From positions 1,326 to 65,325 of the forward strand of contig JBAZKA010000005.1 of the NCBI GenBank assembly GCA_041651015.1: a DNA stretch of 64,000 nucleotides, written 5' to 3'. The notes beneath the pieces were generated by a model that saw nothing but the letters and a program-made list of their open reading frames with translations, was not told the origin of the DNA and ran no database searches. Positions 41,101-59,827 of this stretch are shown here, piece by piece (the first letter of the stretch is position 1; every line of letters begins with the position of its first letter). Origin of the DNA: Patescibacteria group bacterium. GTDB lineage: Bacteria; Patescibacteriota; Patescibacteriia; Magasanikbacterales; GWA2-37-8. The translations under genes were made by a program, and so were the position numbers.

Positions 41101-44100
41101 TATTACATGGGCACGACCGTCGGTACCAATGGCGCGGGCGATACGCGCACCTGCAATTCTAATGTTGAATCCTGTCGCGCTTACAAAGGCAATGCCGGCA
41201 ACAACGTCAGATTATTATTAAATGAAGATTTTGAAAATGCCGATTTGACGAATTGGGGTGTGTCGGCCAGTTCCGCGTCCACTGTCACTATTGCCACTTC
41301 CACCGAGTCCACGCAAATTGATGGGCATTCTTTACGCGTGAATGTGAAGACGAATTCTAGTGCAGCCACGGCTTACGCGCAATTAAACGGCCTTCCCGTG
41401 ACCAAAGGTAAAGCTTACACCATATCATTTTGGGCCAAAGGCAGTGCGGCTCTGAAAAGTGTTAGTTTGGCGAGCGCGGATTTTGAAGGTTCGTTTACCG
41501 ACAGCGAAATTAATTCGTCCGATGTTTGGAAATATTATTCCTTCGGTCCGCTAAATTACAACGGCAGCGCGACTACTTCGATTTTATATTTACCTTTGAG
41601 TGCGACCGGCGGCGCGACCCAACAATTATTTATAGACAACATCCGCTTGACCGAGGTGGCTGATTATATATATTTGGTAAAAAATTCTTTGAGCGTCAAT
41701 GCGCTGTGCGACAGTGATACCTCGGATAATTTGCCGGGCGAGGCACTGGGTTGCACGGCTTATTCTGATCCGCTCAAAAATATGTTTTATCTCACCGGCT
41801 TTAATTATCTTTGCCGTGAAGCCGCAGTTGGCTGTACGGCCGTGCTGGACACCTACAACACGCCGGATGATCCCAATGCGCAAGCTTATAATGTTTGGAT
41901 TGCCGGCGCCTCAGGCGGTACCGCATCTGCTACTGTGGGCGGGGAAACATTTACTTGCCAAGTACCGACCGGCGAGACCGGATGTTATACCGATATAATG
42001 GGTTATACGGCGGCACAATTGGTGGCGGCCGGTAATGTTCACTTGACCAGTTCCACAATTTATATTCCGCCGGACACCACCACCTCCACCCCGATTTATT
42101 TGGTAGCCAATCAAAGCGCGACATGCAAAGCGGAAAATTTAGGTTGCGAAGTTTTGGGCAAATCAACGGTGAGTGCCAGCGGATTATCCTATAAGGTGGA
42201 TGGCATTCTGGTAGTCCATTACGAAACATTTGAAGAGACGGCCGTATTAAATAATCCCGCGCTTTATAGCGATACATTGTGTAAAAACGAAGAAGCCGGT
42301 TGCAGCGCGTGGACCTCGGGCGACAGCTCATATTATTTCAAAAAACCAAACGCCACCTGCACATACAAAACAGATAAATTTATTTCCATTGAGCCTCCGG
42401 CCGCCGGCGTGGAAATTAAATCAGTAAATCTAAAAGCCAATTCCATTGGCTGGGTGATGCAGGACACGGGCATTTGCGTGCGAAACGAACTTTCTTCTTA
42501 TGGAATTGTTGGTAGTTCCATCTTTGGTATTGGCGGTTTTATACTTAATTCAGGGTCCCATTACATGGGCCGATACTGCGCTACTGATGCCGATTGTGTT
42601 ATCGGCACCTCTACCGGTACCTGCAAATATGTCAATCAAGTGCCGTGTTATCCGGCTTCAAGAAAACCGAGCGGGGAATATCAATTATGGTCATCGGGTA
42701 ATCCTGTCAAATACTATAATTACGTCGGCACATGTCCACAAGAGCAATCCGGTTGCACCGAGTATGTTGATCATAGTTCATCTGATAATAACGTCTGCGC
42801 CATGACCGGCGAAGTCTGCACTGATGATAGCGATTGTGAGACAGAGGGTGATACTTGCGTGGCAAATGAGGATAGCGCGTATTATTTAATTGATAATGAA
42901 AAACTTCAAGCGCAAGAAGCGGCCTGTAATGGCCAGGTCAGCCAAGCCGAAGGTTGCGCCCTGTTGGACAATACCAATAATCCCAATAAATATTGGAACA
43001 CAACTTCATCATATGCGTTATCAACAAGCAATGATGAAAATTTGGTGACCCCGGTTGATAAAGGCAATGCCAATGATGCTAACACAATTTTAAAAGTCAA
43101 ACACGATCGCGAATGCGCCGAGTGGGCGTATTGTGATTTTAAACAAACATATGTTGATTCGGAAACCAATGAAACCGCTTCGCGCTGTTATCATTTGGGC
43201 GTATGCCAGCAAGCAAGCTCGGCGGTTGGAGTTAGCGGCCGATGCGCGGAAGGTGGCGTAGTGACTGGTAGTTGGCTTGGTAAAGACAAAGTGCTTGATA
43301 AAAATTACTATCAATCCCTTTATTCATCGTGGGATTCAATTGATTTGTCCGGATATTCCATACCTTTTACGTATCAAATACCTGATTTAAGAGTGCGTAA
43401 TGTTGATGATACTAATCGTTTGGTTTATGTGACCACGACCGCATTATGCACTGACGAGACTGATAACGGCAGTGCATGCGGCTCGGGTGGTGCTTGTTAT
43501 AACGGAGAATGCTTATTTAATTATATAGGTCCGGGAAATTCCGTCACTTCGTCACGAAGTATATCTTGTCGCAGCTATCCTGAAGACTCCAGTCCGTTTT
43601 CCACCAGCGTATTGAGTGACAATACGGTTTGGGGCGATGGCGGATCGTCTGGCGGACATTTAATGTCAGCAATATACAAAACCGGTTTTGAAAACACGAA
43701 TTTGTGTTATGATGATTCGGGCGAACTCACCAACAATAAATGTGATTGTAGCTATGATAAATTTCAAACATCGGGTGGGGATATCTTTACTCAGGTCGGA
43801 CGCTCCACCGCTTCGGGCTATGTTTGCTCGGGCGGATCATATAATGGCAAAGATTGCGACGGTTCGGATGATATAGATACCTGTGGCACTGGTGGGACGT
43901 GTTCAAAAGTAAATTCCGTATCAGTCATGACCGGTTGGCAAGGATATTGCATGGAAAAAGATTTACGTCAGACTATAAATGGTACAAGCAATCATCGTTG
44001 TCTTACATGGTGGCCGCTTGAGCTTGCTCCGGGAACTTCAGATATTTGGGCGACTGATCCGAGCGCCGGTTATGAAGTGGGTGAGACCGACGATCGGTAT

Positions 44101-46341
44101 ATGTGTTTGATTAATGCGCCGACCAACAGAAAGCGCTCCACTGCTTATCCTACTTTTAATATGGGAGGTGCCTCAATGCAGGCGGACTGGGGAAATTCCA
44201 CGGGTAGTCTTCAAGGTCCGAATGGTGAGGCGATTCTTTATTCCGGCTCAGCGACTGTTGTTTATAATTCTTTGGAAAATAGCATCGTCACCGGATGTTG
44301 GGACACGAGTGCTAATGCGTTTGATGCTATTTGGGGGTTGTCTATGTCAGATGGAGACGATTCGCAAGGTAAATATTGTCCAATAAATAAAAATACATTG
44401 AAAGAAGCCGGGTCAAATCTCGCTCGGATCAGTTTGCCGGTCGGGCAGACATATTTGCAGAGGAATGATATTGAGAGAATAGATGTTTATCTTGATAAAC
44501 GGTACTCTGGCGACGGTGGTGATGGTGCTGGTTGTAGTGACGGTTGGGTGAGTTTTTACAATGATTTACTTGACGAGAACGAGGATCAATCTTTTATCGT
44601 TAAAGAATGGTTTAGACCGGGTTGTACAAATTCAAGCTGGAGAAAAAAGAGTTTTGGTAGTACCCCTTATTCATTATTAACCGACTGGTATTCGTGGCAA
44701 TGGGAAGGGGGCAATCTCGACGGAGATGGTAATTGGGTTAAAGATAGCAGTATTGTGTACAATCTACAAAACGATACCTATGCGTCCATAACACAAAACA
44801 ATGATTCAGGCAATGGCACTGGTATTCGGATTATATTTGATTCCAAAAATAATTTCAGAGGTATCTGGGTTGATGGCGAAGATAACGCGTCTGGTAGTAC
44901 CGATATGGGATTTTTCTTTGTCATTACTCTACGTGATGGTCGTTGCGCGGAACAATTGCAAATTTCCGATGAAGATGATGAATATTTTGGTTTTAAACCA
45001 TTTACCGGAAGACTAGCACTTGGAGACTTATCTGTCGGTGGAGACTGGGCGGAGTTTGGATTGTCTGCCACTCGCACCAAAGAGATGGATAACCCAAATT
45101 ATGGTTTAAATAGTGATAGCTCACCGCGCACTCTTATCAATCCATTTGTTACGTTATTGGGCAAGTATGGTGCTAACGCCCACAGTCCGCAGGGTATCTC
45201 CGATCCAGATACGGCCATGACAATTCACGCTTCAGATTATGACGCCGGTGTGCCGTTGAGCGTAATGAGGGTGCAAGATGCACCAGCAAGCGAGTACGCG
45301 AGATTTTATGTTGAAAAAGTTAGTGACTGTGCGGCGAACCCGGGTGCACCATATTGTCAGATGCTTAAGCGAATGTTTGCTCGAGTTTATTCGGATAGAT
45401 TGCTGGTGCGCGTGTCGGACGGTGTTTACGCGTTCAAAGATGATCCGACGACATCCGATGGTACAATAGTGGTAAAAAACGGGACATCGGTAGATGACTT
45501 TGACTCTACTGCCGACGCTGCCAATCCGGCAACCGCAAAGACATTAAAATTAATTCTTTATCCGCCACGTGTGGCGGCTCCAACATCTGCCGGTTACGAG
45601 ATAGATGCAGTTGCAGTTAACGGACAAACATCCGGCAATGTGTACTTGGCATCTGGTGCGACTGCGGCGATTCAATTTTACGCGTGGGCTTCACCCAACC
45701 AAATGCCACTGCGCCGTGTCGCGGTCAGAAAAGGCGATGGCACGGATCCAGTAGCGGTTGAGAGCGAAAGTTTAAGTAATAAAAAACCGTCATGCAATAC
45801 AAAATTTTGTGATTGCAATCGCAATACGGGTACAGGTGGAGATGAATTTTGTATTCAGGACCTTAGTGAATTGATGCCTTGTAGTAATGATAGTGATTGC
45901 GACGGATTAACGAACAACACCGTATGCTCAGGCTCTTCCGCCTCCGGTTATACGACCTTTGGCTCGACTTCGGACACCGGCTGCAAAGCCGAACCCTATG
46001 ATTTCATTGTGGATTATTCTTGCCCAATGGGTGGCAGTGAAGGAGCAAAAGTTTATCCATCATCCGCCTCCACCTACGGCATAAATTGGAACACAGACAT
46101 TGTCGCCAATTTCGGTGATGTTCCTTACGTTTGCGCCTTCCAACCCAAAGTTCAGGTGTTGGATAATTGGGGTTGGTGCACTAGTCGAGCGCCAGGTACA
46201 AACGGTGGATGTAATTATTCTTCAAATGAATATGTGAATGGATACGGGTGTTATGCGGAGGATGTATATGATTATTGCGCTTTAAGTAAATCACAACCGT
46301 GGGTACTATATGGTGGTTACGTGGTCGTAGTGCCAATGTAA
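38158..46341 (+). CDS. Giant (2727 aa) Cys-rich extracellular/surface protein with polymorphic C-terminal module
   Basis: Uninterrupted 8.2-kb ORF. N-terminal signal/anchor (FGLSAILSIFVFVTIFGSLFFAP). Hundreds of Cys spaced as in disulfide-rich repeats. The C-terminal 125 aa are homologous to the downstream orphan ORF 47885-48259. Confidence 0.85.
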   Translation: MLRNNQRFMFFNTKKFGLSAILSIFVFVTIFGSLFFAPRPARAQMDANITNAFRAWQVKGTVQEVKQTLKEKAQFMFMTALMNGLNYFANKIAYDMGVWLASGDWGQGPFSSGKSFGSYMAQVAGDSLGEMLGSLSEDLGLNLCDLPDLRLDLALQLGFHFAYNEPKPKCSWQQLRAAYNPENVYSKYASREGLADRIGLGVNVKDTDMGIWFKSKETIDAYTEEQVAGASGEDARGEGISAMTEIISGKQVTPAAAMKQEMLAQTPSKQQEGRAADTRSMTNAALQKGATTVALNAVSTFVNTLLGTVVNNFVTKGMLPGGKTICNPGLSITGVGWNQCADSDSSDTLAANYYTSGSETDNRRAAQELFSELLAPKITTLENYDLATNMAECSEDNKSPDACVIDQSFMQILQQADLGDALTIKQAMERGLLHGDWKLISPNNAEETDKWTCAEEAYCYRNIKFLRQARILPVGFEMAAYIANASTPPSLSDVVNGFYDESSAYYHLINPQWVIKMPKMRCASYAYGAVAQDGVRVQECVDLQHCVGYNKDGTCQSWGYCMKEKPVWKFDAGYCDSIYSTCKAFTGADGDASYLTRTLDTTECNSDNVGCARYSRDKYYVNSSTVDWYSQLAVYNATDETFTNTGIHFNKSVSTCSAENDGCSAFKLASDNSTLLYLKKAPDYLGCYDADPSTAANSLALLNKKISNGVQWPMTLSGLNLIQPQDKKACANYAQVCLPEEVNCNYYTASYTGEKIPAKFTPAVVSDGLVTWNDQCDAVCNGYAAYQEMPSNYSSGQNLSYIIPSSGNSCIASQSGCTAFTNLNANSGGMEQKEYFSYLRLCALPDQTKQKNYTVYESSESGGYSIKTYTLVKNDSNNGPKQIFRDADEYAELAPLCSQTAYEAGTADPDCHQFIGDDASKYYAFLSKTIIATDQCTPYRLSSPELIALTSTDLRCAYDYDYYGVDRRAGSSTVEFKSNACYYMGTTVGTNGAGDTRTCNSNVESCRAYKGNAGNNVRLLLNEDFENADLTNWGVSASSASTVTIATSTESTQIDGHSLRVNVKTNSSAATAYAQLNGLPVTKGKAYTISFWAKGSAALKSVSLASADFEGSFTDSEINSSDVWKYYSFGPLNYNGSATTSILYLPLSATGGATQQLFIDNIRLTEVADYIYLVKNSLSVNALCDSDTSDNLPGEALGCTAYSDPLKNMFYLTGFNYLCREAAVGCTAVLDTYNTPDDPNAQAYNVWIAGASGGTASATVGGETFTCQVPTGETGCYTDIMGYTAAQLVAAGNVHLTSSTIYIPPDTTTSTPIYLVANQSATCKAENLGCEVLGKSTVSASGLSYKVDGILVVHYETFEETAVLNNPALYSDTLCKNEEAGCSAWTSGDSSYYFKKPNATCTYKTDKFISIEPPAAGVEIKSVNLKANSIGWVMQDTGICVRNELSSYGIVGSSIFGIGGFILNSGSHYMGRYCATDADCVIGTSTGTCKYVNQVPCYPASRKPSGEYQLWSSGNPVKYYNYVGTCPQEQSGCTEYVDHSSSDNNVCAMTGEVCTDDSDCETEGDTCVANEDSAYYLIDNEKLQAQEAACNGQVSQAEGCALLDNTNNPNKYWNTTSSYALSTSNDENLVTPVDKGNANDANTILKVKHDRECAEWAYCDFKQTYVDSETNETASRCYHLGVCQQASSAVGVSGRCAEGGVVTGSWLGKDKVLDKNYYQSLYSSWDSIDLSGYSIPFTYQIPDLRVRNVDDTNRLVYVTTTALCTDETDNGSACGSGGACYNGECLFNYIGPGNSVTSSRSISCRSYPEDSSPFSTSVLSDNTVWGDGGSSGGHLMSAIYKTGFENTNLCYDDSGELTNNKCDCSYDKFQTSGGDIFTQVGRSTASGYVCSGGSYNGKDCDGSDDIDTCGTGGTCSKVNSVSVMTGWQGYCMEKDLRQTINGTSNHRCLTWWPLELAPGTSDIWATDPSAGYEVGETDDRYMCLINAPTNRKRSTAYPTFNMGGASMQADWGNSTGSLQGPNGEAILYSGSATVVYNSLENSIVTGCWDTSANAFDAIWGLSMSDGDDSQGKYCPINKNTLKEAGSNLARISLPVGQTYLQRNDIERIDVYLDKRYSGDGGDGAGCSDGWVSFYNDLLDENEDQSFIVKEWFRPGCTNSSWRKKSFGSTPYSLLTDWYSWQWEGGNLDGDGNWVKDSSIVYNLQNDTYASITQNNDSGNGTGIRIIFDSKNNFRGIWVDGEDNASGSTDMGFFFVITLRDGRCAEQLQISDEDDEYFGFKPFTGRLALGDLSVGGDWAEFGLSATRTKEMDNPNYGLNSDSSPRTLINPFVTLLGKYGANAHSPQGISDPDTAMTIHASDYDAGVPLSVMRVQDAPASEYARFYVEKVSDCAANPGAPYCQMLKRMFARVYSDRLLVRVSDGVYAFKDDPTTSDGTIVVKNGTSVDDFDSTADAANPATAKTLKLILYPPRVAAPTSAGYEIDAVAVNGQTSGNVYLASGATAAIQFYAWASPNQMPLRRVAVRKGDGTDPVAVESESLSNKKPSCNTKFCDCNRNTGTGGDEFCIQDLSELMPCSNDSDCDGLTNNTVCSGSSASGYTTFGSTSDTGCKAEPYDFIVDYSCPMGGSEGAKVYPSSASTYGINWNTDIVANFGDVPYVCAFQPKVQVLDNWGWCTSRAPGTNGGCNYSSNEYVNGYGCYAEDVYDYCALSKSQPWVLYGGYVVVVPM

Positions 46342-46460: not shown

Positions 46461-47003
46461 TTATGGCTGGTAACGAATGAGCGAATCTGCAATATCGTCA
46501 TTCACAACGATGTCAATTGAGTCTGAAGCCGCGTGGTAGATGATGCAAATCGTAGAGGTACTGCTAGAATAACAGACAGACGTACCAGTACCGACGAAAA
46601 CGACTTCCGAATTGATTGGGCAGCTGTCCTCTTCCCACGGTAGATCAGCGTGATCGGTTTCACATTGATCGTCCGGAAATTCCGTGGTAAAAACACAACC
46701 CAAGGAGGTGTTGTCTTGTCCAACCCACGTATCCGCAAAGAAGTCGCCGGTCTGGTTGCACGCTTCCTCGGCCTCGGTATCCGTCTCCGTATCCGCGTCG
46801 GTGTCGGAGTCGCTGTCGGAATCACTGTCGGAATCGGTATCCGTATCCGTATCGGAATCCGAGTCGGAATCACTGTCGGAATCGGTATCCGTATCCGTAT
46901 CGGAATCCGAATCCGCGGAACCGCCGTCATCACCACAGGCGGTGATGAACGAGAACAAGGAAATGATGGTGATGAGAATCGCGAACCGATAAAATTTTTC
47001 CAT
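46461..47003 (-). CDS. Lipoprotein with (DS/DT)n acidic repeat linker and Cys-containing C-terminal domain
   Basis: GGAGGGTACC-ATG. Lipobox FITAC. SADSDSDTDTDTDSDSDSDSD... repeat. Paralogue of 48384-48947. Candidate immunity partner of the upstream C-terminal module (inference). Confidence 0.6.
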   Translation of the reverse strand: MEKFYRFAILITIISLFSFITACGDDGGSADSDSDTDTDTDSDSDSDSDSDTDTDTDSDSDSDSDSDTDADTETDTEAEEACNQTGDFFADTWVGQDNTSLGCVFTTEFPDDQCETDHADLPWEEDSCPINSEVVFVGTGTSVCYSSSTSTICIIYHAASDSIDIVVNDDIADSLIRYQP

Positions 47004-47295
47004 GGTACCCTCCCCATTGCCAACCCATCGGGCCGGCGTCAATCCGCGAGCTGACCGAAGTCAAAGCGCGGACTTTGTTGCGAACCTTTTTTGTTTCGCC
47101 CCCTCATGGGGCAGAGAAGCGCGGCCTAACGAAATGACAAATTTCCAATTTCCAATGTCAAATCAATGCCAAAATCCAAACGTCAAATTTTTAAATTTTG
47201 AGCTTTGGATTTGATTGAATATTTGTCATTGGATATTTGACATTAAGCAACACTTTTCTACCTCATAAGAAAGGCGTCTAATCCTACCTGTATTG

Positions 47296-47420
47296 TAAAG
47301 AGCGGTTTTTGGCCGACATTCGGCCTCTATTTCTATTTTAACCCATTTTCGTGGGTAAAACAAGATATAATAGCACGTTTTGGGGGATTTGTCAAGAGGG
47401 GGCGGGTGTGATAGTATAAT
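47296..47420 (+). promoter_or_regulatory. About 120-bp conserved promoter repeat (copy 1) driving hicBA
   Basis: ctattttaacccattttcgtgggtaaaacaagatataatagcacgttttgggggatttgtcaag is almost identical to 49195-49262. TTGTCA -35-like, TAGTATAAT -10-like. Confidence 0.6.
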
Positions 47421-47446
47421 GATAGCTAAATAATAATTTTATATCT

Positions 47447-47704
47447 ATGCGTCGGAATAAACTAAATTACAACCTAATTTTTCGTCCTGAACCGGAGGGT
47501 GGTTTTACCGTAGTTGTTCCATCATTACCTGGCTGCATTACCTATGGTAAAAGCCTTGAAGAAGCGCGCAAAGCGGCGGCAGACGCTATTCGTGGATATG
47601 TCGCCAGCCTAAAAAAACATCATGAATACCTCCCGACTGACGAAGCTAATTTTATATCCTCTTTTGATTTAGAAATATCCAAGCCATATGCCGCGCGCGC
47701 CTAG
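47447..47704 (+). CDS. hicB: HicB-family antitoxin
   Basis: IFRPEPEGGFTVVVPSLPGCITYGKSLEEARKAAADAI matches the HicB/UPF0150 fold. Confidence 0.8.
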   Translation: MRRNKLNYNLIFRPEPEGGFTVVVPSLPGCITYGKSLEEARKAAADAIRGYVASLKKHHEYLPTDEANFISSFDLEISKPYAARA

Positions 47705-47888
47705 GCTAACGGCCAAACAAATTATTAAAATGTTAAAAGAAAATGGTTTTGTATTAGACCATGCTTCCGGTAGTCATTATATTTTTTATCATCCGGTATC
47801 TCACAAACGAGTGACAGTGCCATATCATTCTAGGACACTCCCGATGGGCACACTAAAAAGTATTTTGCGAGCGGCAGAGTTGAATTGA
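47688..47888 (+). CDS. hicA: HicA-family mRNA interferase toxin
   Basis: KQIIKMLKENGFVLDHASGSHYIFYHP...RVTVPYHSRTLPMGTLKSILRAAEL. Overlaps hicB. Confidence 0.8.
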   Translation: MPRAPRLTAKQIIKMLKENGFVLDHASGSHYIFYHPVSHKRVTVPYHSRTLPMGTLKSILRAAELN

Positions 47889-48259
47889 ATTTTTCCCAAC
47901 TTTCCTTCGGCTCCACCGCCGACACCGGCTGTAAGAGTAGGCCGTTGGAATTTATCACTGATTACAACTGTCCGTCGGCCGCGGCAAATATAGTTGGTTG
48001 GGACACTTCAGGTTATGGTATTGATTGGAATTATATCGCCGCCAATTACGGTCATCCGACTTATGTTTGCGCCTTCAAACCAAAAGTTCAAGTGTTGGAT
48101 AATTGGGGTTGGTGCACGGGGAGTTGTACCAATGATGACGACGTGGTGAAGGGGAATGGGTGTTATTCAGAATCAGACACTGGAGACCAATGTAAAACAT
48201 CCTATACTAAACCATGGGTCAATTACGATGGATATATCGTTGTAGTGCCAGTGTTGTAA
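47885..48259 (+). other. Orphan C-terminal module (no ATG; TTG at the junction) homologous to the giant protein's C-terminus
   Basis: (TTG)NFSQLSFGSTADTGCKSRPLEFITDYNCP...YVCAFKPKVQVLDNWGWCTG...YIVVVPVL versus giant C-terminus FGSTSDTGCKAEPYDFIVDYSCP...YVCAFQPKVQVLDNWGWCTS...YVVVVPM. About 90% nucleotide identity across tatgtttgcgccttcaaaccaaaagttcaagtgttggataattggggttggtgcac. Confidence 0.75.
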
Positions 48260-48290
48260 AATATAAATTACGTAGATAATAAAAAATAAA

Positions 48291-48323
48291 CCCTCGCAAG
48301 AAATTGCGGGGGTTTGGTTTTTT
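48291..48323. terminator. Terminator (second copy of repeated terminator)
   Basis: ccctcgcaagaaattgcgggggtttggtttttt. Confidence 0.7.
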
Positions 48324-48383
48324 GTGGAGCAAAGGCTCCGAGGTAGGATTGTTGTGCCGGCCAAGAGTTGGCCGACAGCGGGG

Positions 48384-48947
48384 TTAACAGCCGCAACGGA
48401 CGTAGGTCGTGCCATCAGTTTCTCCGTCATCCACGGAGTACTGTTGACGGAAACCACCGTCACTGTCAACGTAAAATTCCATTGTGGTTGATGTGTTAGC
48501 GTCGTACTCGCTATACGGCAATGCAGTCATATCTACTGTTCCGGTTGCGACAGCACCGTCACCGGAAAAAGTCACTTGACACGTGGTCACCGCGTATGTT
48601 AGGACGGTGTTGAGAATGTAGTCGGAGTCGCAACAATGATTTTCAGCGTACATATCGCCCTCAATGTCCACGCATCCCTCGGCATCCGATGTGCCGTTGA
48701 GGCAATCGCACGAAGTGTCGGCATCCGTGTCCGTGTCGGTATCCGAGTCGCTGTCCGAATCGGTATCGGTATCCGTATCCGAGTCGCTGTCGGAATCCGA
48801 ATCCGTGTCACTGTCGCTGTCCGAATCGGCATCGGTGTCCGAATCCGCAGAGGAACCGCCGTCGTCACCACAAGCGGTGACAAACGTGGAGAGGGAGGCC
48901 ATCATGACGATGGCCATGATCGCGAACAAATTCGCCAGCTTCGTCAT
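48384..48947 (-). CDS. Lipoprotein paralogue with (DS/DT)n acidic repeat linker and divergent Cys-rich C-terminal domain
   Basis: AAGGAAG-ATG. Lipobox FVTAC. SSADSDTDADSDSDSDTDSDSD... repeat. C-terminal domain differs from 46461-47003. Confidence 0.6.
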   Translation of the reverse strand: MTKLANLFAIMAIVMMASLSTFVTACGDDGGSSADSDTDADSDSDSDTDSDSDSDSDTDTDTDSDSDSDTDTDTDADTSCDCLNGTSDAEGCVDIEGDMYAENHCCDSDYILNTVLTYAVTTCQVTFSGDGAVATGTVDMTALPYSEYDANTSTTMEFYVDSDGGFRQQYSVDDGETDGTTYVRCGC

Positions 48948-49129
48948 GGCTTTCTTCCTTTTTTACCTCAAACGCGTTCGCGAGTGAGGTTTGGTTGTAT
49001 CTGCTCGTTGCCCCTTTCGGGGACGACCCGTATAACCCGGGAATCTGACAACATTGATTAAGACAGATTAAAACTGATTTAAACTGACGCGACAATGCCG
49101 ACAAATTTCCGGATCATACTTTTAATCCT

Positions 49130-49286
49130 ACCTGCCCCGACCTAAATGCGTCGGGGCCTATATTGTAAAGAGCAGGTTTTGCCATTAAATGGCCTATATT
49201 TCTATTTTAACCCATTTTCGTGGGTAAAACAAGATATATTAGCACGTTTTGGGGGATTTGTCAAGCCCCCTGCTGTGTGATATGAT
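49130..49286 (+). promoter_or_regulatory. About 120-bp conserved promoter repeat (copy 2) driving mnt-hepT
   Basis: Same repeat as 47296-47420. TTGTCA (49258-49263), 17-nt spacer, TATGAT (49281-49286), then GGGAGGG SD and ATG 49313. Confidence 0.65.
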
Positions 49287-49312
49287 GGGAGGGTAAAAAT
49301 GATGCAATTTAT

Positions 49313-49600
49313 ATGACTGCTACGCAAAAACAAATTAAAAGTGCTGTCTTACCCATATTAAAAAAATACGGTGTTTTAAAGTCTGCGCTTTTCGGATCGT
49401 TTGCCTCCGGTGAACAAAATAAAAAAAGTGATGTGGATATTTTAGTAAAGATGCCTCGCGGCAGTAGCTTGTTTGAATTGGTGGATTTACGTGTTGAGTT
49501 AAAAGATAAATTAAAACGTGATGTGGATCTTGTCACATATGAGTCAGTGCACCCTCGGCTTAAAGATAAAATTGCGGCATCATCCACCAGTATCTTATGA
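49313..49600 (+). CDS. Nucleotidyltransferase-family antitoxin (MntA-like)
   Basis: ALFGSFASGEQNKKSDVDILV minimal NTase motif (GS...DxD). Confidence 0.8.
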   Translation: MTATQKQIKSAVLPILKKYGVLKSALFGSFASGEQNKKSDVDILVKMPRGSSLFELVDLRVELKDKLKRDVDLVTYESVHPRLKDKIAASSTSIL

Positions 49601-49962
49601 AGAAAGATAAAGACACACAAGTATTTATTGAACATATTTTAGATTCCATTGAAGCGATTGAAAAATATATCGCCAATATGCCGTTTGAAGACTTTGCTAA
49701 AAATGGTTTAACTCAAGACGGCGTTTTCCGACGGCTGGAAATCATCGGTGAAGCGGTCAAAAATATACCCATAAGTTTTAGAAAAAATTATCCGGATATT
49801 CCTTGGCGAAAAATTGCCGGCATGCGCGATTTTTTAATTCATGAATATTTTGGGGTAGATATTAGATTGGTTTTTGAAACGGCAAGCGGGCGTTTACCAA
49901 AATTTAAACAACAAATTTTGGAAATTAAGTTTTCCGAACCGGCCTTGAAACTAAGGAAGTGA
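49597..49962 (+). CDS. HepT-like HEPN toxin (DUF86)
   Basis: R-x4-HxY motif (MRDFLIHEY). Overlaps mnt by 4 nt. Confidence 0.8.
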   Translation: MKKDKDTQVFIEHILDSIEAIEKYIANMPFEDFAKNGLTQDGVFRRLEIIGEAVKNIPISFRKNYPDIPWRKIAGMRDFLIHEYFGVDIRLVFETASGRLPKFKQQILEIKFSEPALKLRK

Positions 49963-50264
49963 ATATTCGGTCATTATTAAGTTATTTTTCCTTCGGTTCC
50001 ACCGCCGACACCGGCTGTAAGGAAGAACCACTGAGCGAAATTGCTGGACTTGAATTAGATGAAAATACGTTAGATGATTTGGATAAAATTAATGAATTTA
50101 ATATTCGCGCCAGATACCCGGATTATAAAAATGAATTTTATAAAAAATGCGATAAGAAATATGCGAATAAATATTTGGTAATCATCAAAAAAATTTATTT
50201 AAATTTATGTCAAGGCTTGAAGCAAAAAAATAGTCAAAAAATACGCGGAAGTATTGAAAGATAA
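49959..50264 (+). other. Orphan C-terminal module 3: conserved junction (SFGSTADTGCKEEP) fused to a HEPN-like fragment; GTG start overlapping the hepT stop
   Basis: Nucleotides tccttcggttccaccgccgacaccggctgtaag are identical to the 47903-47935 junction. The downstream part (NEFNIRARYPDYKNEFYKKCDKKYANKYLVIIKKIYLNL) carries a HEPN-type (A)RYPD signature. Confidence 0.6.
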
Positions 50265-50520
50265 CAAATTTCCTTTTTTCGCGATTTATCTTTTCGGTTC
50301 GCACGCCAAAAATCACGCGAGTCGTTGGAGCGATATTGATGTGGCGGTAATCACCGATCGTTTAAACAGAGATAATGATACGGCGAGATTTGACTTAAGA
50401 AAATATCGCCGTGCTGTTGATGTGCGCATTGAGCCGCATGGTTTTAACGTAAAAGATTTTGCGGTTGCCGCTGATCCGTTGGTGCATGAGATTAAGAAGA
50501 CGGGGATACGCATTGTTTAA
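50254..50520 (+). CDS. Nucleotidyltransferase-domain protein (MNT-like), TTG start, possibly N-terminally truncated
   Basis: IYLFGSHAKNHASRWSDIDVAV (GS..DxD). No in-frame ATG after the upstream stop. Partner of the HEPN-like orphan. Confidence 0.5.
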   Translation: MKDNKFPFFAIYLFGSHAKNHASRWSDIDVAVITDRLNRDNDTARFDLRKYRRAVDVRIEPHGFNVKDFAVAADPLVHEIKKTGIRIV

Positions 50521-50533
50521 ATTAAATATTTAT

Positions 50534-50562
50534 AAACGCGTCCAAATACGGCGCGTTTTTTG
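50534..50562 (+). terminator. Terminator ending the cassette array
   Basis: aacgcgtccaaatacggcgcgtttttt. Confidence 0.6.
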
Positions 50563-50656
50563 TTTGCCGCCGACCGTGGTAAAAAATATGCAAATGTAAA
50601 TATAACCGCCTTGTTTTTGAAGACAAGGCGGTACGGATAAACAAAGAGCAATTTTT

Positions 50657-51187
50657 TTACCATGAGATGTGGATTATGGCAAGATCAGGGTCATGACCTA
50701 TTATTTCATTCTGATAATAGGAGTCACTAGCGGGACAAAACTTTATTTCCACCCCCAGCCCCCTTGATTTGATATCAGAAATCACGAGATTGAGTTCATT
50801 ACTGGCTACAAGTGTACGTCCGCCCCAGAGACGTTCTTCCACGCTGTACCACGGTAGCCGATAATTGCTCTCAAAATGAGCTATGGAGAAAATCTCGCTG
50901 TGCGTGAACACTTTAATATCATTATTTTCATAACTTTTTTTACGAACCGGGTCGCTTCTATCCATAATGACAAATGAATTTTTATCTTCCTTGGCAACTT
51001 TTGTAGCTATTTCCATAATTGCCGCGACATATTTATCCGCTTGTCTTTTGATAAATTCCGGCGAGCTTGTAATGCGGCGTAATTCATCAGCCGCTTTTTC
51101 CTCTAGAAATTTACGTTGCTCATTTTCTTGCCGTGCTTGGCGCATCAGATCGTGGAGCTGCGTGGCTGTTTTGATTTTTTCATTCAT
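50657..51187 (-). CDS. Hypothetical protein (176 aa)
   Basis: Start at MNEKIKTATQ (GGAGG-ATG at 51187). Confidence 0.5.
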   Translation of the reverse strand: MNEKIKTATQLHDLMRQARQENEQRKFLEEKAADELRRITSSPEFIKRQADKYVAAIMEIATKVAKEDKNSFVIMDRSDPVRKKSYENNDIKVFTHSEIFSIAHFESNYRLPWYSVEERLWGGRTLVASNELNLVISDIKSRGLGVEIKFCPASDSYYQNEIIGHDPDLAIIHISW

Positions 51188-51434
51188 GGGAGCCTCCTCA
51201 TGCAAATAGATGCTGTTTTGATACAAAAAATTGTCAAAGAAGTTAACTATATCAATTGAGTATATTGAAGCATAAAACAGTAGTGCGGTCAAGTATAATA
51301 AGGGGAAAAGTTCGGTGGCATTATTAGTTAAAACGCCTTTACCTATTGTGGATAAATCCCAATACTTTTAAACTTTGTCTTGCCGCGTCCTTTGTGCTAT
51401 AATAACATCATAAACGTAAGCCCGATTCGGCTTT

Positions 51435-54400
51435 ATGAATAATTCCCTCCTGAACAAGGGGAGATGGTTGTGGCAGAAAATTAAACCGCGAAGGCGGCTT
51501 GGTTTTGTTTCCATATTTTTGCTAATGTCGGTCTTTTTGTTCGCGATGTTTGTGGTGGGAATCCATCCGGCGTATGCCGATTTTGGCAGTACGCTTTCCG
51601 AGTGGTTAGGAAATTTAGTTTTGGGATTGGCGGCGACTTTCATGTCCATTACGGTTTTTATTTTGAAATTCGTCATTGAAATCGCCAGCTATAATCATTA
51701 TATCAACGCGCCGGCCGTCACTCTCGGCTGGGTGTTGGTGCGCGACGTCACCAACATGTTTTTTGTTTTGATTTTAATGGTGATCGCGTTTGGCACAGTT
51801 CTCGGCATAGAGCAATACGAATGGAAAAAATTATTGGTCAAGTTTGTCATGGCCGCCATACTGGTTAATTTTTCTCGTTTGATTTGCGGCGTCATCATTG
51901 ATGCGGCCCAAGTGTTTATGATGACTTTTATTTCCGGCGCGGCCGCGACCGCTGGCGGAAATTTGGTCAATGCTTTGCACATGAATGATATTTTAGCTTT
52001 TGCCACCGATGCCGACCCGAGCGCGTTGAGTACTGATATAAATGTTCTTGTTTCAGCAATAGTCGCTTGTATTTTTGCCTTTACCGCCATGGTGGTGATT
52101 GGCGCGTATCTACTCATGCTGATTGCACGCGTCATCGCGCTTTGGATTTGCATTATTTTGTCGCCGTTGGCTTTTGTGCTTGGCGTAATTCCCAAATTTC
52201 AATCTTACGCCAGCCAGTGGTGGACTGAATTTACCAACAATGTTTTGTCCGGGCCGGTGTTGGCATTTTTTTTATGGTTGGCTTTTGCCGTGGCCGGAGG
52301 CGCTAACATCCACGATGAATTCACCGGCGCCAATTCCGGCTATCCAATTACAGATGCGGAAACCGCCATGCAAGAGGCATCGACAGCCACCGGCGGCGAG
52401 CCGAGCATGAACCTTAACAAAGTTTTGCAATGGGAAAATTTAGCGAATTTTATTTTAGCGGCGGCATTGTTGCTGGCCGGCGTGAAAACCACGCAAAAAT
52501 TATCCGCGGCCGGAGCTGGTATGCTTGGCGCCGCGGCCGGCGCAGCCACTAAGTTTGCTTATGCGGCGTCCGGCGCCGCGGCCGGTTTGGCCGCCGCCAA
52601 GTGGACGGGGAAGACGGCAAAGGCCGTGGGAAAAGGTATTGCCATGAATGTGCCGTTAGTGGGAGGAAATGCATGGAAAGAACGGGGAGAAAATTTAGCG
52701 TTGAACGCGAAACTTGGGATGCAAGCAGGGAAGGATTTTTATAATAGACAAATACTTGAACGTGGGTCGCATGCCTTTGCTCGAACAAAGCCCGGCAAAT
52801 TCTTGGCAGCTGCTGGGGGTGTCGTTGGCCTGAATAAAGGAGATATTTCTAGTCAGTTTATGATTGGTACTAGGGCGGCGCAAATTAAAACGAAGAAAGA
52901 TATGCTGGAAAATCGTATTAAGCTTGCTGAAACATCTGTAAAGGAACCGGAAGATCTAAAACAAAAACAGGCTGATCTCAAGGCCAACGTTGAGCTCGGA
53001 AAACTAATAAAAGCCGGTGTTATTGCAAAACGTGATGAGCAGGCGTGGAAAAATCTTGAGGAGAAAATTGCGCCTGATAGTAAAGGTAGGGGTGAAAAAT
53101 TAGTTGACATGGCTGCCAGCATGCAAGCAAAGGCTGATTTGTTTGAATCTAAACACAAACAAGAACAACAAGTAAGGTTGTTATCCGCGAAAGAAGATGT
53201 TTTGCGGAAAAAAGCCGGTGAAACCGGCATTGGAGGCTACACGGTGGAAGCTGATAAAGCCAAAGCTGAACGCTTGGGGATTGAAAATGAAAAAATGGTG
53301 AAGGAGGCCGGCGGTATTGATAATTTAACTGATCAACAAAAATTAGAATTTCAAAAAAATAAACAATTTATTGATATTTCCGCGGCGCAAACAAAATTAA
53401 TTGAAGAACAAACTCAGGTCGCCGGTGAGCAAGCTAAACAGGTGTTGTTGACCGGTGCTGGCGAGGAATCCGGGCGCTTAGAAGGCATTCAAGGGCGCCA
53501 AGCTGAGTTGATGAAAGAAAAGGAGTTGATTACCCAAGATAATCGCGCGATTGAAGAAATTAGACAGCTAAAGCGTATAGAGGAGCTATTGCGGACAAGC
53601 GGAAGAATGCAAGATTTAAACAGCAGTTTGCATGGAAATAAAATTGAACTGGATGACGCGAAAATAGAAACCGATCGGGCGACTTCGGAACTAAACGCCA
53701 AAAGCTATGAGGGTAAAGGCCGAGATGATTTGGCGCGTTTGGAACACGCAAAATTTGCGAACAGTTATTTTAAGAAAATGCAGGAAAATTTTGCCGATTA
53801 TAGTTATAATGATTTTGCAACTGAAGCCCCGGCGCAATTTAAACGTGTTCAGGATGCCGCGGCAGCATATGATGGCGTGAAGGGGACAGGTAGTCCAGAC
53901 GAAGCCGAAAAAACGAAAGCGTACCAAAAAGAGGCGGCCAAAACCGCGAGCTTTGTAGCTCTGAGCATGCGTGACGCCTCAACTTACAAAGCAGTTGAAG
54001 ACGCGGCAACAAAGGTGATCCCTTACACCGGCGACAGGTCACCGGAAAACAGGCAAAATATTCTCGCCTCAATGATTAGCGGACGAGACATGAAAGGTAA
54101 GAATAGTGTTGAGCTTAATAGCGAATTAAGCGGTCTTAATAGAAATAATCAGCACCAAGTTAATGCCATGTTGAAAATTTTGCAAGACAACGCCAAGACA
54201 TTGGCCTCTAAGTCTGGCTATGCTTCAGTGGTATCTGGTGTCAAATATGATACGGTGAAGGGAAACTATTCTCTTGGTTATAATAAAGAAGATGCTGATT
54301 ATTATTCTACCCATGCCAATATGCGTGAGGCAACGAATGCCTACCACATAATCTATCAAGACAAGACAGGTGATCTCAACATCGACGTGCACAATGAAAA

Positions 54401-54659
54401 TGCTTTTATAAGTCAAGTTAAGAACGCGGATCAAAATAATGTGGGTCGCGTGTTCCTTCCCGCGTTAATGGCTGACTTGAATGAAAAAATGGAAGCCCTT
54501 GATCCTGCTAAGCTGGATGGATTCCTAAAACATGTAGCCGAAGGCATGACAGACGACAAAGCACTTAAAATTTTAATCAAACGCATGGAGAAAATTTTGA
54601 AAAAATCCGGTAAAACAGAGGCGGAAATTTTAAAGTATTGGAAAGATTCGCATAAGTAA
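51435..54659 (+). CDS. VirB6/TrbL-like polytopic membrane protein with about 700-aa C-terminal coiled-coil/charged extension
   Basis: About 330-aa N-terminal region with 6-7 TM helices in TrbL/VirB6-like spacing, Gly/Ala-rich hinge, then long Lys/Glu/Ala-rich alpha-helical tail. Confidence 0.6.
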   Translation: MNNSLLNKGRWLWQKIKPRRRLGFVSIFLLMSVFLFAMFVVGIHPAYADFGSTLSEWLGNLVLGLAATFMSITVFILKFVIEIASYNHYINAPAVTLGWVLVRDVTNMFFVLILMVIAFGTVLGIEQYEWKKLLVKFVMAAILVNFSRLICGVIIDAAQVFMMTFISGAAATAGGNLVNALHMNDILAFATDADPSALSTDINVLVSAIVACIFAFTAMVVIGAYLLMLIARVIALWICIILSPLAFVLGVIPKFQSYASQWWTEFTNNVLSGPVLAFFLWLAFAVAGGANIHDEFTGANSGYPITDAETAMQEASTATGGEPSMNLNKVLQWENLANFILAAALLLAGVKTTQKLSAAGAGMLGAAAGAATKFAYAASGAAAGLAAAKWTGKTAKAVGKGIAMNVPLVGGNAWKERGENLALNAKLGMQAGKDFYNRQILERGSHAFARTKPGKFLAAAGGVVGLNKGDISSQFMIGTRAAQIKTKKDMLENRIKLAETSVKEPEDLKQKQADLKANVELGKLIKAGVIAKRDEQAWKNLEEKIAPDSKGRGEKLVDMAASMQAKADLFESKHKQEQQVRLLSAKEDVLRKKAGETGIGGYTVEADKAKAERLGIENEKMVKEAGGIDNLTDQQKLEFQKNKQFIDISAAQTKLIEEQTQVAGEQAKQVLLTGAGEESGRLEGIQGRQAELMKEKELITQDNRAIEEIRQLKRIEELLRTSGRMQDLNSSLHGNKIELDDAKIETDRATSELNAKSYEGKGRDDLARLEHAKFANSYFKKMQENFADYSYNDFATEAPAQFKRVQDAAAAYDGVKGTGSPDEAEKTKAYQKEAAKTASFVALSMRDASTYKAVEDAATKVIPYTGDRSPENRQNILASMISGRDMKGKNSVELNSELSGLNRNNQHQVNAMLKILQDNAKTLASKSGYASVVSGVKYDTVKGNYSLGYNKEDADYYSTHANMREATNAYHIIYQDKTGDLNIDVHNENAFISQVKNADQNNVGRVFLPALMADLNEKMEALDPAKLDGFLKHVAEGMTDDKALKILIKRMEKILKKSGKTEAEILKYWKDSHK

Positions 54660-54667
54660 AACATATT

Positions 54668-55663
54668 ATGCAATCATTTCATCCAAAATTAATCGGTTCA
54701 AAAACATTTGAAGAATTGTTCAAGGATTTTTTTGAAACCGCGCGATATGATTCTGTGCAAATGGAGGTGACGAGATTGGAATTATTCAGTTTGTTTGGCG
54801 AGATGAGCATAACTGAGATTCAGGAGTATCGCCGGACTTATTGGCCATTTTATGTTTATGCCATTTGGTCAAATCCTTTGGATGTTCGCCCGGAAGTAAT
54901 GATAAAGAATATTGCGATTCAATTGCCCGATGCTGTGCGGCTGGGTTTTGATATTTTAGATAAAATTCTTTCATACGCGAATTTTCGTTTGACATTGGAG
55001 CCGGACATTCAATCATTTTTTGCCAAGACGCGCGACGCTTTGGAGAGATCCGACTGGCCGATCGGCGTATTGCCAAATGGTAAAATTTATACAATTGCCG
55101 ATTGCGTCAAAGAGGTTATGATGAATGAAAGTAGAGCGAGCAACAGTATGGAATATGCCGAGCTGTATCAGAAATTATCAAAGCTGATATTTCCAAACGG
55201 TTTAAATGATGAGTTGTATAAAAAAGAATATATTTATATTACGACTCACGAGGCTGTTGATAATTTGATCAAAATAATTACCGTGTTAACACAAAATTCA
55301 CCAGAGACCCTTACTCAATTAGTTGATCAATATGCACATCCGGAGATTTATGACCCTGATTATGGCATGAATATAAATATTAAAACTGAACCTGTGATGT
55401 CAAGTCAAGATGGCAAGCCTTCATCACCCATAACCCCACCCGCAAACCCTATGCCCCCAACTCCACCCCTCGTCAAACCCGCGCCCGCGGAAATCCGCGC
55501 GAAAATTGATGCCGCGTTTGAAAAAGACGCGCAAGGAAATTACAAAGATTTAGATGGTGTGTTTATTGTTTTGGGACGTGCGGCCGCTAAATACAACGAC
55601 CCAAAGATCGCCGAATTATATTATTTTGATGACAATGCCGGTGAGTTTAAATGGAATGTTTAA
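54668..55663 (+). CDS. Hypothetical protein with Pro-rich C-terminus (T4SS-cluster associated)
   Basis: 331 aa. PITPPANPMPPTPPLVKPAPA linker. Confidence 0.5.
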   Translation: MQSFHPKLIGSKTFEELFKDFFETARYDSVQMEVTRLELFSLFGEMSITEIQEYRRTYWPFYVYAIWSNPLDVRPEVMIKNIAIQLPDAVRLGFDILDKILSYANFRLTLEPDIQSFFAKTRDALERSDWPIGVLPNGKIYTIADCVKEVMMNESRASNSMEYAELYQKLSKLIFPNGLNDELYKKEYIYITTHEAVDNLIKIITVLTQNSPETLTQLVDQYAHPEIYDPDYGMNINIKTEPVMSSQDGKPSSPITPPANPMPPTPPLVKPAPAEIRAKIDAAFEKDAQGNYKDLDGVFIVLGRAAAKYNDPKIAELYYFDDNAGEFKWNV

Positions 55664-55664
55664 T

Positions 55665-56780
55665 ATGACAGATGAAGTTTTAATCCCAGTCAAAAAATTA
55701 GACGGCACGGTGGAAAAAATCACCATGGCCGAATTTCAGACTCGGCAAAAAAATAAACAGCGTGCCAAGACGGCCGTGGTAATTACGCAAAAACCAATTT
55801 CGCCGGCACAAACTGTCGTCATTCCCGCACCCACGACGCCAAAGACGGTTATCAATGAAAAAATTAAAGAAGAACCGGCGTTGGAAGAATTACCCAAGAC
55901 AACCGCTAATGCCCCGCGAGTCAGTCCGGATAGAAAAGCCGAGGCTGGGGAGATCGTTCGCAAATTAAATTTACAAATTTCATCTGATGCCAAAAATCGT
56001 TTGCTTGGTTTGGTTCAACTGCGCCTCAAAGATGTGCGCGGCGAGGAAGAAGTAAAAGAATGGCTCGTCCGTTCGGAAAATCAATATGGCATTGGTTTAG
56101 ATGCCGTGGCCGCGGATAAAGTTATCATGGCGGTTAATGATTTTATCAAAAAAAATATTCCCCAATCCGCTGAAGTTCCGGTTTTAAAAAAACCTCTCGG
56201 TGTGCCTAAAGCGCTTTTGAAAGAAGACCAAGAACCGTTCCCGGCCACATCATCCCCGATAAATTCGTTTGTGCATCGTAGCACGCCAGAGCCCCAAAGG
56301 GGCGAAGGTGGCCTTGGCTCGCCGAAGCAAAAAAGCGAAGGTGGCCGTAAATCTTTGGATGATTTGGTACGCGCCGAGTCCGTTAATATGGGTAATGATA
56401 TTTCCGGCCTGGTGGCGAAAAGAGAAATGCCGGCGCGGACAATGGTGCAAGATATTACGCCGGCCAAACCGGCCAATCTCGGGCCGGTGGAAGAAATTCG
56501 TTATTTCACGCTGACTGATTTTCGCCGGCTGTCCACCAACCCAAATGAAGCCGCCTCGCGTCTGGCGCAAAAATTTACGAATCTGCGGGACGAGTCGTAT
56601 ATTTTATTTATGAATGCTTTGGAAGCGTGGCGTTTGAGCCCGTTGTTTAATGATTATATTGGCGCTTCGGCCGCATCATTGAATATGAAAAAGAAAGTGG
56701 CGGAAAATATGGCTGATAAAAATAAAATTCAGATGAACGAAATTAAGGCCTTGATACAAATGGAGAAAGATTTGCTATAA
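55665..56780 (+). CDS. Hypothetical Lys/Pro-rich protein (T4SS-cluster associated)
   Basis: Start at MTDEVLIP (ATG 55665). Contains a GC-rich internal direct repeat (56290-56345; GEGGLGSPKQKSEGG). Confidence 0.5.
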   Translation: MTDEVLIPVKKLDGTVEKITMAEFQTRQKNKQRAKTAVVITQKPISPAQTVVIPAPTTPKTVINEKIKEEPALEELPKTTANAPRVSPDRKAEAGEIVRKLNLQISSDAKNRLLGLVQLRLKDVRGEEEVKEWLVRSENQYGIGLDAVAADKVIMAVNDFIKKNIPQSAEVPVLKKPLGVPKALLKEDQEPFPATSSPINSFVHRSTPEPQRGEGGLGSPKQKSEGGRKSLDDLVRAESVNMGNDISGLVAKREMPARTMVQDITPAKPANLGPVEEIRYFTLTDFRRLSTNPNEAASRLAQKFTNLRDESYILFMNALEAWRLSPLFNDYIGASAASLNMKKKVAENMADKNKIQMNEIKALIQMEKDLL

Positions 56781-56784
56781 TACT

Positions 56785-57222
56785 ATGGCGATGCAAACAC
56801 AATTTGTCGTGCCGCAATTCATTGATGTGGAAGACAAGATTTTTGGACCGGTGACGGCACGCCAGTTTGTGATTTTGTTGGTGTCCGGCTTGCTCATTGT
56901 ACTTGCTTATAAGTTGGCGGATTTTGCTTTATTTGTTTTTATCTTGGTGATATTGGGCGGCGGATCGCTGGTCATCGCTTTTGTCAAAGTCAACGGCCAA
57001 CCATTTCATTATGTAATTTTGAACATTATTCAGACATTGCGTCGTCCATCGCTCAGAATTTGGAATAAAGTTTTTGACACGGCGGATTTGAAACGCATAC
57101 GCGAAGAGGCGAAAGTAGTGGTGCCGGAAGCGGCTAAACCGATTCAGCGAATATCTTACAGCCGTTTGCGTGATTTATCCTTGACGGTCAATACCGGCGG
57201 ATATTATAAATCAGAAGACTAA
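56785..57222 (+). CDS. Small two-TM membrane protein, VirB3/PrgI-like by position and topology
   Basis: FGPVTARQFVILLVSGLLIVLAYKL...FVFILVILGGGSLVIAFV. Immediately precedes the VirB4 ORFs, as VirB3-type genes do. Confidence 0.4.
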   Translation: MAMQTQFVVPQFIDVEDKIFGPVTARQFVILLVSGLLIVLAYKLADFALFVFILVILGGGSLVIAFVKVNGQPFHYVILNIIQTLRRPSLRIWNKVFDTADLKRIREEAKVVVPEAAKPIQRISYSRLRDLSLTVNTGGYYKSED

Positions 57223-57224
57223 CT

Positions 57225-57911: not shown

Positions 57912-57916
57912 TTAAT

Positions 57917-59797: not shown

Positions 59798-59827
59798 GAC
59801 TGAAATGTATATAAAATAAATTTTAAT

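Follow-up and report, generated by a model that had tools for sequence, protein, structure and literature searches.

What is the short segment that lies directly behind an intact MntA–HepT toxin–antitoxin (TA) pair in a Patescibacteria genome of the order Magasanikbacterales? In the 64,000-nucleotide stretch of contig JBAZKA010000005.1 that we analyzed (the window), positions 49981-50520 couple the beginning of a giant gene's conserved 3' part to a fragment of a HEPN-type RNase gene, which is followed by an MNT nucleotidyltransferase gene. An initial annotation had suggested a decaying second HEPN/MNT system that was captured as a toxin tip together with its immunity gene, or else a recombination substrate. 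We conclude, with a probability of about 85%, that the segment is a strain-specific, non-functional recombination or deletion scar of a second HEPN–MNT pair and not a working module. The decay was borne out: HEPN codons 1-66 are lost and the MNT gene is frameshifted, directly after MntA–HepT. The capture was not, as discussed below.

The giant gene encodes a 2727-aa secreted protein and is followed by units of ~1.9-2.1 kb that are delimited by DNA repeats. Each unit opens with a junction and a tip (a copy of the C-terminal domain of the giant protein). A hairpin terminator comes next, then a convergent lipoprotein gene with acidic repeats and a promoter element, and finally a TA pair, which is HicB/HicA (47447-47888) in unit 1 and MntA/HepT (49313-49962) in unit 2. 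The segment in question starts with a third junction, the J3 stub (Table 1), which is homologous to the giant gene from position 45947. Its junction (49987-50021) shares 97% identity over 35 nt with the one that heads orphan tip 2 (47901-47935) and 71% with the internal junction of the giant gene (45953-45987), and a 30-nt junction pattern with up to three mismatches occurs twice in the window versus not at all in 100 shuffles. A copy of the main gene's conserved junction therefore heads this orphan (repeat families D2 and D6). As the initial annotation had stated, the junction is coupled to HEPN-type sequence: the 51-nt copy runs straight into it, the first HEPN-derived codon being CTG 50031-50033 by codon comparison with a relative (L094). 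The stub has a GC content of 0.53, which falls to 0.26 past the joint, in the HEPN remnant.

Profile comparison placed the HEPN similarity far above noise. Alignment of the window open reading frame (ORF) to a 20-sequence HEPN family profile with hhalign gave 99.8% probability (E 1.7e-27) over columns 68-136 only. By BLASTP, ORF residues 25-91 correspond to residues 67-133 of an intact 133-aa HEPN with 73% identity (E 2e-33); this relative comes from the Patescibacteria metagenome-assembled genome (MAG) STC_31 (L094) and from an independent Logan sample that is 99.4% identical (L172). Pfam family PF05168 matched ORF residues 25-80 (profile 60-111 of 117, E 4.5e-4) at 20.8-21.1 bits, just below the gathering cut-off of 22 bits, and the intact 133-aa HEPN scored 64.3 bits over profile positions 1-113. 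The window fragment is homologous to the HEPN family and covers profile positions 60/65-111 only, not the full domain of ~115-135 aa (profile 1-117). A reading of ORF residues 25-101 as a diverged tip was rejected on the strength of the BLASTP and hhalign matches. We also considered a displaced HEPN 5' half, and rejected it since tblastn found no such half elsewhere in the window.

The missing part contains most of what the family conserves. The window keeps four of the 14 family-invariant columns (L67, N90, R94 and Y95), and the ten that are gone span W11 through L64, including E43, K44 and H62. The Arg-Tyr of FNIRARYPDY is retained; overall, the polar residues are not. The His of the H[DN]L motif, found in 57 of 57 complete upstream HEPN homologues, is absent from the window. 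PF05168 is the nucleotidyltransferase-associated 'HEPN-T', whose members often carry another residue in place of the canonical Rx4-6H His, and in which a conserved His at a different position may aid activity (Anantharaman 2013 PMC3710099). The His lost here is most likely that second conserved one. Other searches added little: a PDB sequence search with the intact relative gave no match, and one with the family profile gave only 1UFB (TT1696), at E 0.11. A word-indexed protein search with the 67-aa HEPN fragment returned only itself, although a 73%-identical homologue exists, and with tip 2 only five matches, so that this method is uninformative on absence for either query.

The MNT gene is broken as well. 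It matches PF18765 (E 1.8e-9) and PF01909 (E 1.2e-7) and carries the motif LFGSHAKNHASRWSDIDVAV, which reads GS-x10-DID and corresponds to the Pol-beta-type pattern G-S-x(n)-D-x-D. The initial annotation had described it as lacking an ATG. This holds for the open frame, which starts at TTG 50254, and fails for the gene, as a genuine ATG at 50207 exists in another frame and is separated from the rest by the loss of one nucleotide. Both frames meet at a run of seven A's: the window reads GAAGC-A7-TAGTC, compared to GAAGC-A8-TAGTC in the closest relatives (L094, L172, L173, L006, L007 and L010). Insertion of one A restores a 104-aa MNT (MSRLEAKKIVKKYAEVLKDNKF...GIRIV) and lets the HEPN end in ...GLKQKK-TAG, as in relatives. 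The restored residues 1-104 align to dozens of MNTs at 55-65% identity. Among the best 120 MNT homologues, nearly all are exactly 104 aa long and the sole 88-aa entry is the window strain's own; the window itself holds no uninterrupted 104-aa ORF. The apparent lack of an ATG is thus due to a 1-nt slippage deletion in an A tract that is constrained by both overlapping genes. The ancestral MNT start at 50207 overlaps the ancestral HEPN stop, as in the relatives and by the ~25 nt usual for the family, which places the MNT immediately adjacent to its HEPN. No terminator was detected between HepT and position 50534, so the 101-aa and 88-aa ORFs may still be transcribed from the MntA–HepT promoter. 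The two database entries for these ORFs can be corrected: the 'hypothetical protein' MFA5128187.1 is a junction–HEPN chimera, and MFA5128188.1 a frameshifted MNT.

Contigs from other samples locate the breakpoint and show that it is polymorphic between strains. An ENA MEGAHIT contig (L001) is identical to the window from 46863 to 59962, with all differences in the lipoprotein-1 repeat, whose number differs by 48 nt, and a Logan contig (L002) is 100% identical over 9,357 nt. Judged by this identity, both represent the window strain. Two further contigs, L003 (JGI 3300014204) and L004 (ENA ERZ27247350), share 97.5-97.8% identity with the window over the promoter, MntA–HepT and the junction, and this identity stops at 50031. 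Beyond this point they carry a complete tip 3 (74% nucleotide identity to tip 1; L003 755-1182 and L004 560-987), a terminator and an acidic-repeat lipoprotein. In the type IV secretion system (T4SS) region their samples are 99.0-99.6% identical to the window, so that L003 and L004 come from close sibling strains. In the sibling contigs, a complete tip 3 and lipoprotein follow where the match to the window ends, at 50031; the arrangement of the window is therefore a scar of deletion or illegitimate recombination that is specific to its strain. With a junction to its left and mid-gene sequence to its right, the joint has the signature of a deletion or illegitimate join and not of a tandem duplication; at this locus, the novel joints of tandem duplications are boundaries of the type 'TA stop then junction'.

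We propose that the 51-nt piece of the third junction and codon 67 of a resident HEPN gene were brought together in a single illegitimate-recombination event. By one route, a deletion of ~1.6 kb (a size estimated by analogy with units 1 and 2) would have removed tip 3, lipoprotein 3, a promoter and the HEPN 5' half. By the other, homology-facilitated illegitimate recombination would have inserted a segment made up of promoter, MntA–HepT and junction into a locus where a promoter and HEPN–MNT were already resident. The two routes are not separable because the sibling contigs end inside the lipoprotein repeats. Either way, we infer that the 51-nt stub is a product of recombination and that the HEPN/MNT remnant has lost its function. 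The event would have destroyed the HEPN, a presumed toxin by analogy with HepT/MntA (PMC7641770), by removing its N-terminal helices and invariant His, which would be harmless to the cell. The MNT, on the same analogy the presumed antitoxin, would have been left without a job and could then have lost one A from the A8 tract, which lies in the overlap of HEPN stop and MNT start. The chimeric 101-aa ORF and the 88-aa TTG ORF would be by-products of the fusion and the frameshift. Read in this presumed order, the locus is a clean example of the decay expected of a TA pair, in which the toxin is killed first and the antitoxin drifts after.

Does the segment resemble an ordinary member of its family elsewhere? 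A metagenome contig scan with the MNT protein gave 80 loci. At least 57 of these 80 unrelated loci have a complete HEPN (~132-136 aa) immediately before the MNT, sharing ~25 nt with it where the match extends to the HEPN C-terminus. The window MNT is by this comparison the ordinary operon partner of its HEPN family. Several relatives show the intact pair in a similar setting. In L094 and L172, two independent samples, it lies between a lipoprotein and the next orphan tip, and L097 contains, in this order, MntA–HepT, a stub of its own giant gene (62% identical), and two intact HEPN–MNT pairs with a second stub between them. MntA–HepT also occurs between the giant gene and a 1074-aa membrane protein in L096 and L101, and together with HicBA in L110. 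L173 (3-1207; JGI 3300031707) has a HicB–HicA pair with 76% nucleotide identity to that of the window and, 111 nt behind it, an intact HEPN–MNT that shares 72% identity with the window remnant. Because HicB–HicA precedes HEPN–MNT there, the same TA families appear to travel together in varied combinations.

Giant-gene 3' stubs lie directly beside TA pairs, mostly just after them, in L096, L097, L101 and L110; the stub in L116 has no TA neighbor among the families searched. Given these layouts, HEPN–MNT in the slot between giant gene and membrane protein seems normal, and decayed orphan fragments next to TA pairs seem recurrent. Giant-gene 3' fragments occur in at least six further Patescibacteria genomes (L094, L096, L097, L101, L110 and L116) and adjoin TA pairs in all of these but L116. 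The zone between the giant gene and the T4SS-like cluster is therefore a hot spot in which TA modules and cassettes of the surface protein are shuffled together. We considered a universal 'FGST' recombination site and rejected it, as the orphan and stub boundaries differ between genomes: the window, L097 and L101 have them in an FG patch, L094, L096 and L116 in an MPLRR patch, and L110 at a site still further upstream. Stubs within one genome share their 5' boundary.

What kind of domain do the tips represent? Searched against GTDB, the three tips gave matches in 80 loci from Magasanikbacteria, Uhrbacteria, Falkowbacteria and other Patescibacteria, nearly all with a single copy ending an ORF of 2,500-3,300 aa. 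In all 257 representative clusters from an exhaustive HMMER search, the domain forms the very C-terminal end of the protein. In the giant protein of the window it comprises the last ~128 residues, from TFGSTSDTGCK, is Cys-rich and ends in VVVPM. Tips 1-3 of the window species are 58-60% identical to one another, tip 2 sharing 58% of its amino acids with tip 1, and do not form a set of diverse, unrelated toxin C-terminal domains. They are instead one conserved structural domain that varies between alleles. An AlphaFold2 model of the tip, made from a six-sequence alignment, reached a pLDDT of 47. Tip 3 was found only in the sibling strains. As a separate observation, it is cut off from its junction by a 1-nt deletion (GGCTG[T]AAA) in two independent samples.

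These results bear on the proposal that the HEPN RNase was captured behind the junction as an exchangeable toxin tip, with the MNT as immunity protein and the whole as a silent cassette for the giant gene. The junction copy is in frame with the HEPN-derived sequence, a same-strand MNT follows it, and orphan tip cassettes do exist at the locus. However, only the C-terminal half of the HEPN is present, without the invariant His and the E/K positions, and its MNT is frameshifted. The order and overlap of the two genes are ordinary for the family in dozens of unrelated loci, which makes the MNT the usual operon partner of its HEPN and not a captured immunity gene. The true tips are a single Cys-rich domain ending in VVVP, and none of the giant proteins in the 257 clusters and 80 genomes ends in a HEPN. 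The junction–HEPN fusion was found only in the window strain's cluster, and at the same junction the sibling contigs carry a real tip. We consider such a capture highly improbable. A different possibility is that the toxin is dead and the MNT is kept as an orphan 'anti-addiction' antitoxin against incoming HEPN-T toxins; its product could be the 88 aa from TTG, or 104 aa by transcriptional or translational slippage on the A tract. The catalytic GS-x10-DxD motif is intact, as is all of the C-terminal part, the gene has no further lesions and shares 99% identity with its restored reading, it lies inside a transcription unit with a promoter-like site and a terminator-like hairpin, and the locus is a TA hot spot in relatives. 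We nevertheless regard this as unlikely: essentially all homologues are 104 aa long, the missing 16 residues form a conserved N-terminal helix, and poly(A) slippage should seldom occur on a tract of no more than seven A's.

An assembly artefact, through a chimeric join at the repeated junction, a homopolymer miscall or both, is scarcely credible. The junction does occur in three copies, homopolymers are error-prone, and the neighboring lipoprotein repeats differ between assemblies. But the window, the ENA MEGAHIT contig and the Logan contig, the last from a different assembler, agree exactly in the joint and the A7 run, and the HEPN frame continues cleanly from the joint. The repeat of 35-51 nt is shorter than the k of 141 (taken from the 'k141_' contig names), and therefore a chimeric join is not expected. 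Against our preferred reading of a strain-specific scar stand several points. The three concordant assemblies may stem from overlapping read sets. The sequence past lipoprotein 3 in the L003/L004 strain was not recovered, as look-ups with the 182-aa ORF described below (p182), HicA, the PrgI-like protein and the MNT (exact), together with cluster listings, gave only the window strain or contigs <2.3 kb. In the collections searched, no intact allele of the window HEPN or MNT exceeds 72-73% identity. Finally, the GS...DxD catalytic motif is still present in the 88-aa MNT, and a weak Shine–Dalgarno-like GGAAG precedes its TTG; this MNT may have residual activity or be restored to frame on occasion by A-tract slippage.

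Table 1 Positions of the features discussed, given in the window or, for the stubs of relatives, in the named contig.
Feature	Position	Strand	Details
Giant gene	38158-46341		2727-aa secreted protein; CBM_4_9 the only Pfam match
Tip 1	45955..46341	+	Expressed C-terminal domain of the 2727-aa giant protein; ORF list
Convergent lipoprotein gene after tip 1	46461-47042	minus
Orphan tip 2	47885..48259	+	Junction and complete C-terminal domain; starts at the HicA stop codon; DNA repeats D2, D3, D5, D9
Convergent lipoprotein gene after tip 2	48384-48947	minus
Intergenic element upstream of MntA	49157..49312		Conserved core with back-to-back promoter-like sites
MntA-type nucleotidyltransferase antitoxin, intact	49313..49600	+	95 aa; PF01909 E 8e-15, PF18765 E 1.4e-15
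HepT, DUF86-type HEPN RNase toxin, intact	49597..49962	+	121 aa; PF01934 E 1.7e-27, profile 1-120 of 120
J3 stub	49981..50031	+	Orphan start of the giant protein's C-terminal domain (SYFSFGSTADTGCKEEP); ends after 51 nt
HEPN 3' half, PF05168-type	50032..50233	+	Codons 67-133; ancestral TAG 50231-50233, now out of frame
MNT nucleotidyltransferase gene, frameshifted	50207..50520	+	Residual 88-aa frame from TTG 50254
A7 homopolymer	50224..50230	+	1-nt deletion site; A8 in relatives
Terminator-like hairpin and T-run	50534..50566	+	9-pair stem, then TTTGTTTG; closes the unit of MntA, HepT, stub and HEPN/MNT remnants
Stubs of own giant gene, L097	10856-11020, 11786-11866
Stubs of own giant gene, L110	14300-14422, 16770-16856
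Stub of own giant gene, L096	12114-12283
Stub of own giant gene, L101	11399-11461
Stub of own giant gene, L116	10053-10130

The intact pair directly upstream of the remnant, which the initial annotation had called a canonical MntA–HepT, was substantiated by its PF01909 and PF01934 matches. It has the hallmarks of type VII HepT/MntA systems, with an MntA gene first, overlapping by 4 nt a DUF86 HepT gene whose motif R-DFLI-H-E-Y (MRDFLIHEY) corresponds to Rx4HxY, and the identical HepT protein was found by exact look-up on four contigs from four samples. Even this intact pair misses the NCBIfam equivalog cut-offs, scoring 52.8 (MntA_antitoxin) and 38.3 bits against 60 bits. The broken pair differs further from type VII systems, since its HEPN belongs to PF05168 and not PF01934 and the gene order is the opposite. 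It resembles HEPN-T (PF05168)/MNT modules (Makarova 2009 PMC2701414; Anantharaman 2013 PMC3710099), in which the HEPN precedes the MNT with an overlap of ~25 nt; the fragment keeps the RY Arg motif and the MNT its GS...DxD, and compared to the intact pair in the related Patescibacteria MAG they are 73% and about 70% identical, respectively. By analogy, the MNT of the broken pair would neutralize its HEPN by nucleotidylylation. Unlike those modules, the window HEPN is without residues 1-66 and continues the frame of 51 nt that come from an unrelated gene, and the window MNT has a 1-nt frameshift.

The array as a whole invites comparison with orphan cdiA-CT/cdiI and Rhs-CT modules (Poole 2011 PMC3150448; Zhang 2012 PMC3482391). 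In both, promoter-less 3' fragments start from a conserved junction and are arrayed downstream of the full-length gene for a very large secreted protein, and some are truncated or frameshifted. In contrast to these modules, the window tips are variants of one domain, Pfam found no toxin domain in the giant protein (CBM_4_9 only), the neighbor that co-varies with a tip is a convergent lipoprotein and not a same-strand immunity gene, and TA pairs are interleaved between the units. The half domain and its frameshifted partner also argue against a complete active C-terminal toxin that is neutralized by downstream immunity.

On its own, the scar is an ordinary pseudogenized TA pair; the tip, lipoprotein and TA array around it is of more interest. 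The lipoprotein genes contain long (D/S/T)-rich 12-nt tandem repeats and diverge together with their tips. We tentatively suggest, as a possibility that is more doubtful than not, a system of tip and lipoprotein cassette variation in Magasanikbacteria-like Patescibacteria, in which interleaved TA pairs (HicBA, MntA–HepT and HEPN–MNT) stabilize the cassettes. Silent copies of the tip, each with the lipoprotein that co-varies with it, would build up downstream through recombination at patches where the gene is conserved. The TA pairs would stabilize these cassettes against loop-out and constrain where deletions end, as deletions could run into a toxin gene, as at 50031, and not into an antitoxin gene; the scar would then be a by-product. 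TA cassettes stabilize chromosomal cassette arrays such as the Vibrio superintegrons, which likewise have TA pairs between repeated, deletion-prone cassettes flanked by direct repeats. Unlike in superintegrons, we saw no integrase or attC sites at the locus, and the window repeats are gene fragments. A stabilizing role of the TA pairs may hold here by the same analogy. The TA cassettes (47447-47888 and 49313-50520) have a GC content of 0.26-0.42, compared to 0.46 for the giant gene and 0.52-0.54 for the lipoprotein genes, and their AT-richness is consistent with a separate, mobile origin.

If the suggestion is true, the cassettes would supply variation in host or partner recognition. The giant gene lies directly upstream of a T4SS-like cluster (51435-59797) with the 1074-aa membrane protein, a PrgI/VirB3-like protein, a TraC-like protein and a VirB4/TraG-P-loop ATPase, and this synteny is kept in many of the 80 GTDB Patescibacteria loci. 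For Patescibacteria, which are thought to depend on cell-surface contact with their hosts, a T4SS adhesin has yet to be identified; a survey of their T4SS published in 2025 reported none and mentioned no such cassette array (PMC12102498). Because that survey found none, we put the 2727-aa giant protein forward as a candidate T4SS adhesin. As far as our limited literature search shows, the cassette system has not been described so far.

Between the MNT remnant and the T4SS-like cluster lies p182 (50657-51205, minus strand). None of the 80 related GTDB loci has a homologue of this ORF, which has no Pfam match either and is specific to the window strain. An Rfam scan of the window found two tRNAs only, and the conserved intergenic hairpins match no RNA family. 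These hairpins, two in number, belong to a 75-nt element upstream of MntA, where 49191-49265 is 97% identical to 47322-47396. The intergenic element reads TTGACA-17-TAATAT on the minus strand, facing the lipoprotein gene, and TTGTCA-17-TATGAT on the plus strand, facing the TA operon. Both promoter-like sites have a TG extension, and the -35 box TTGTCAA/TTGACAA is common to both.

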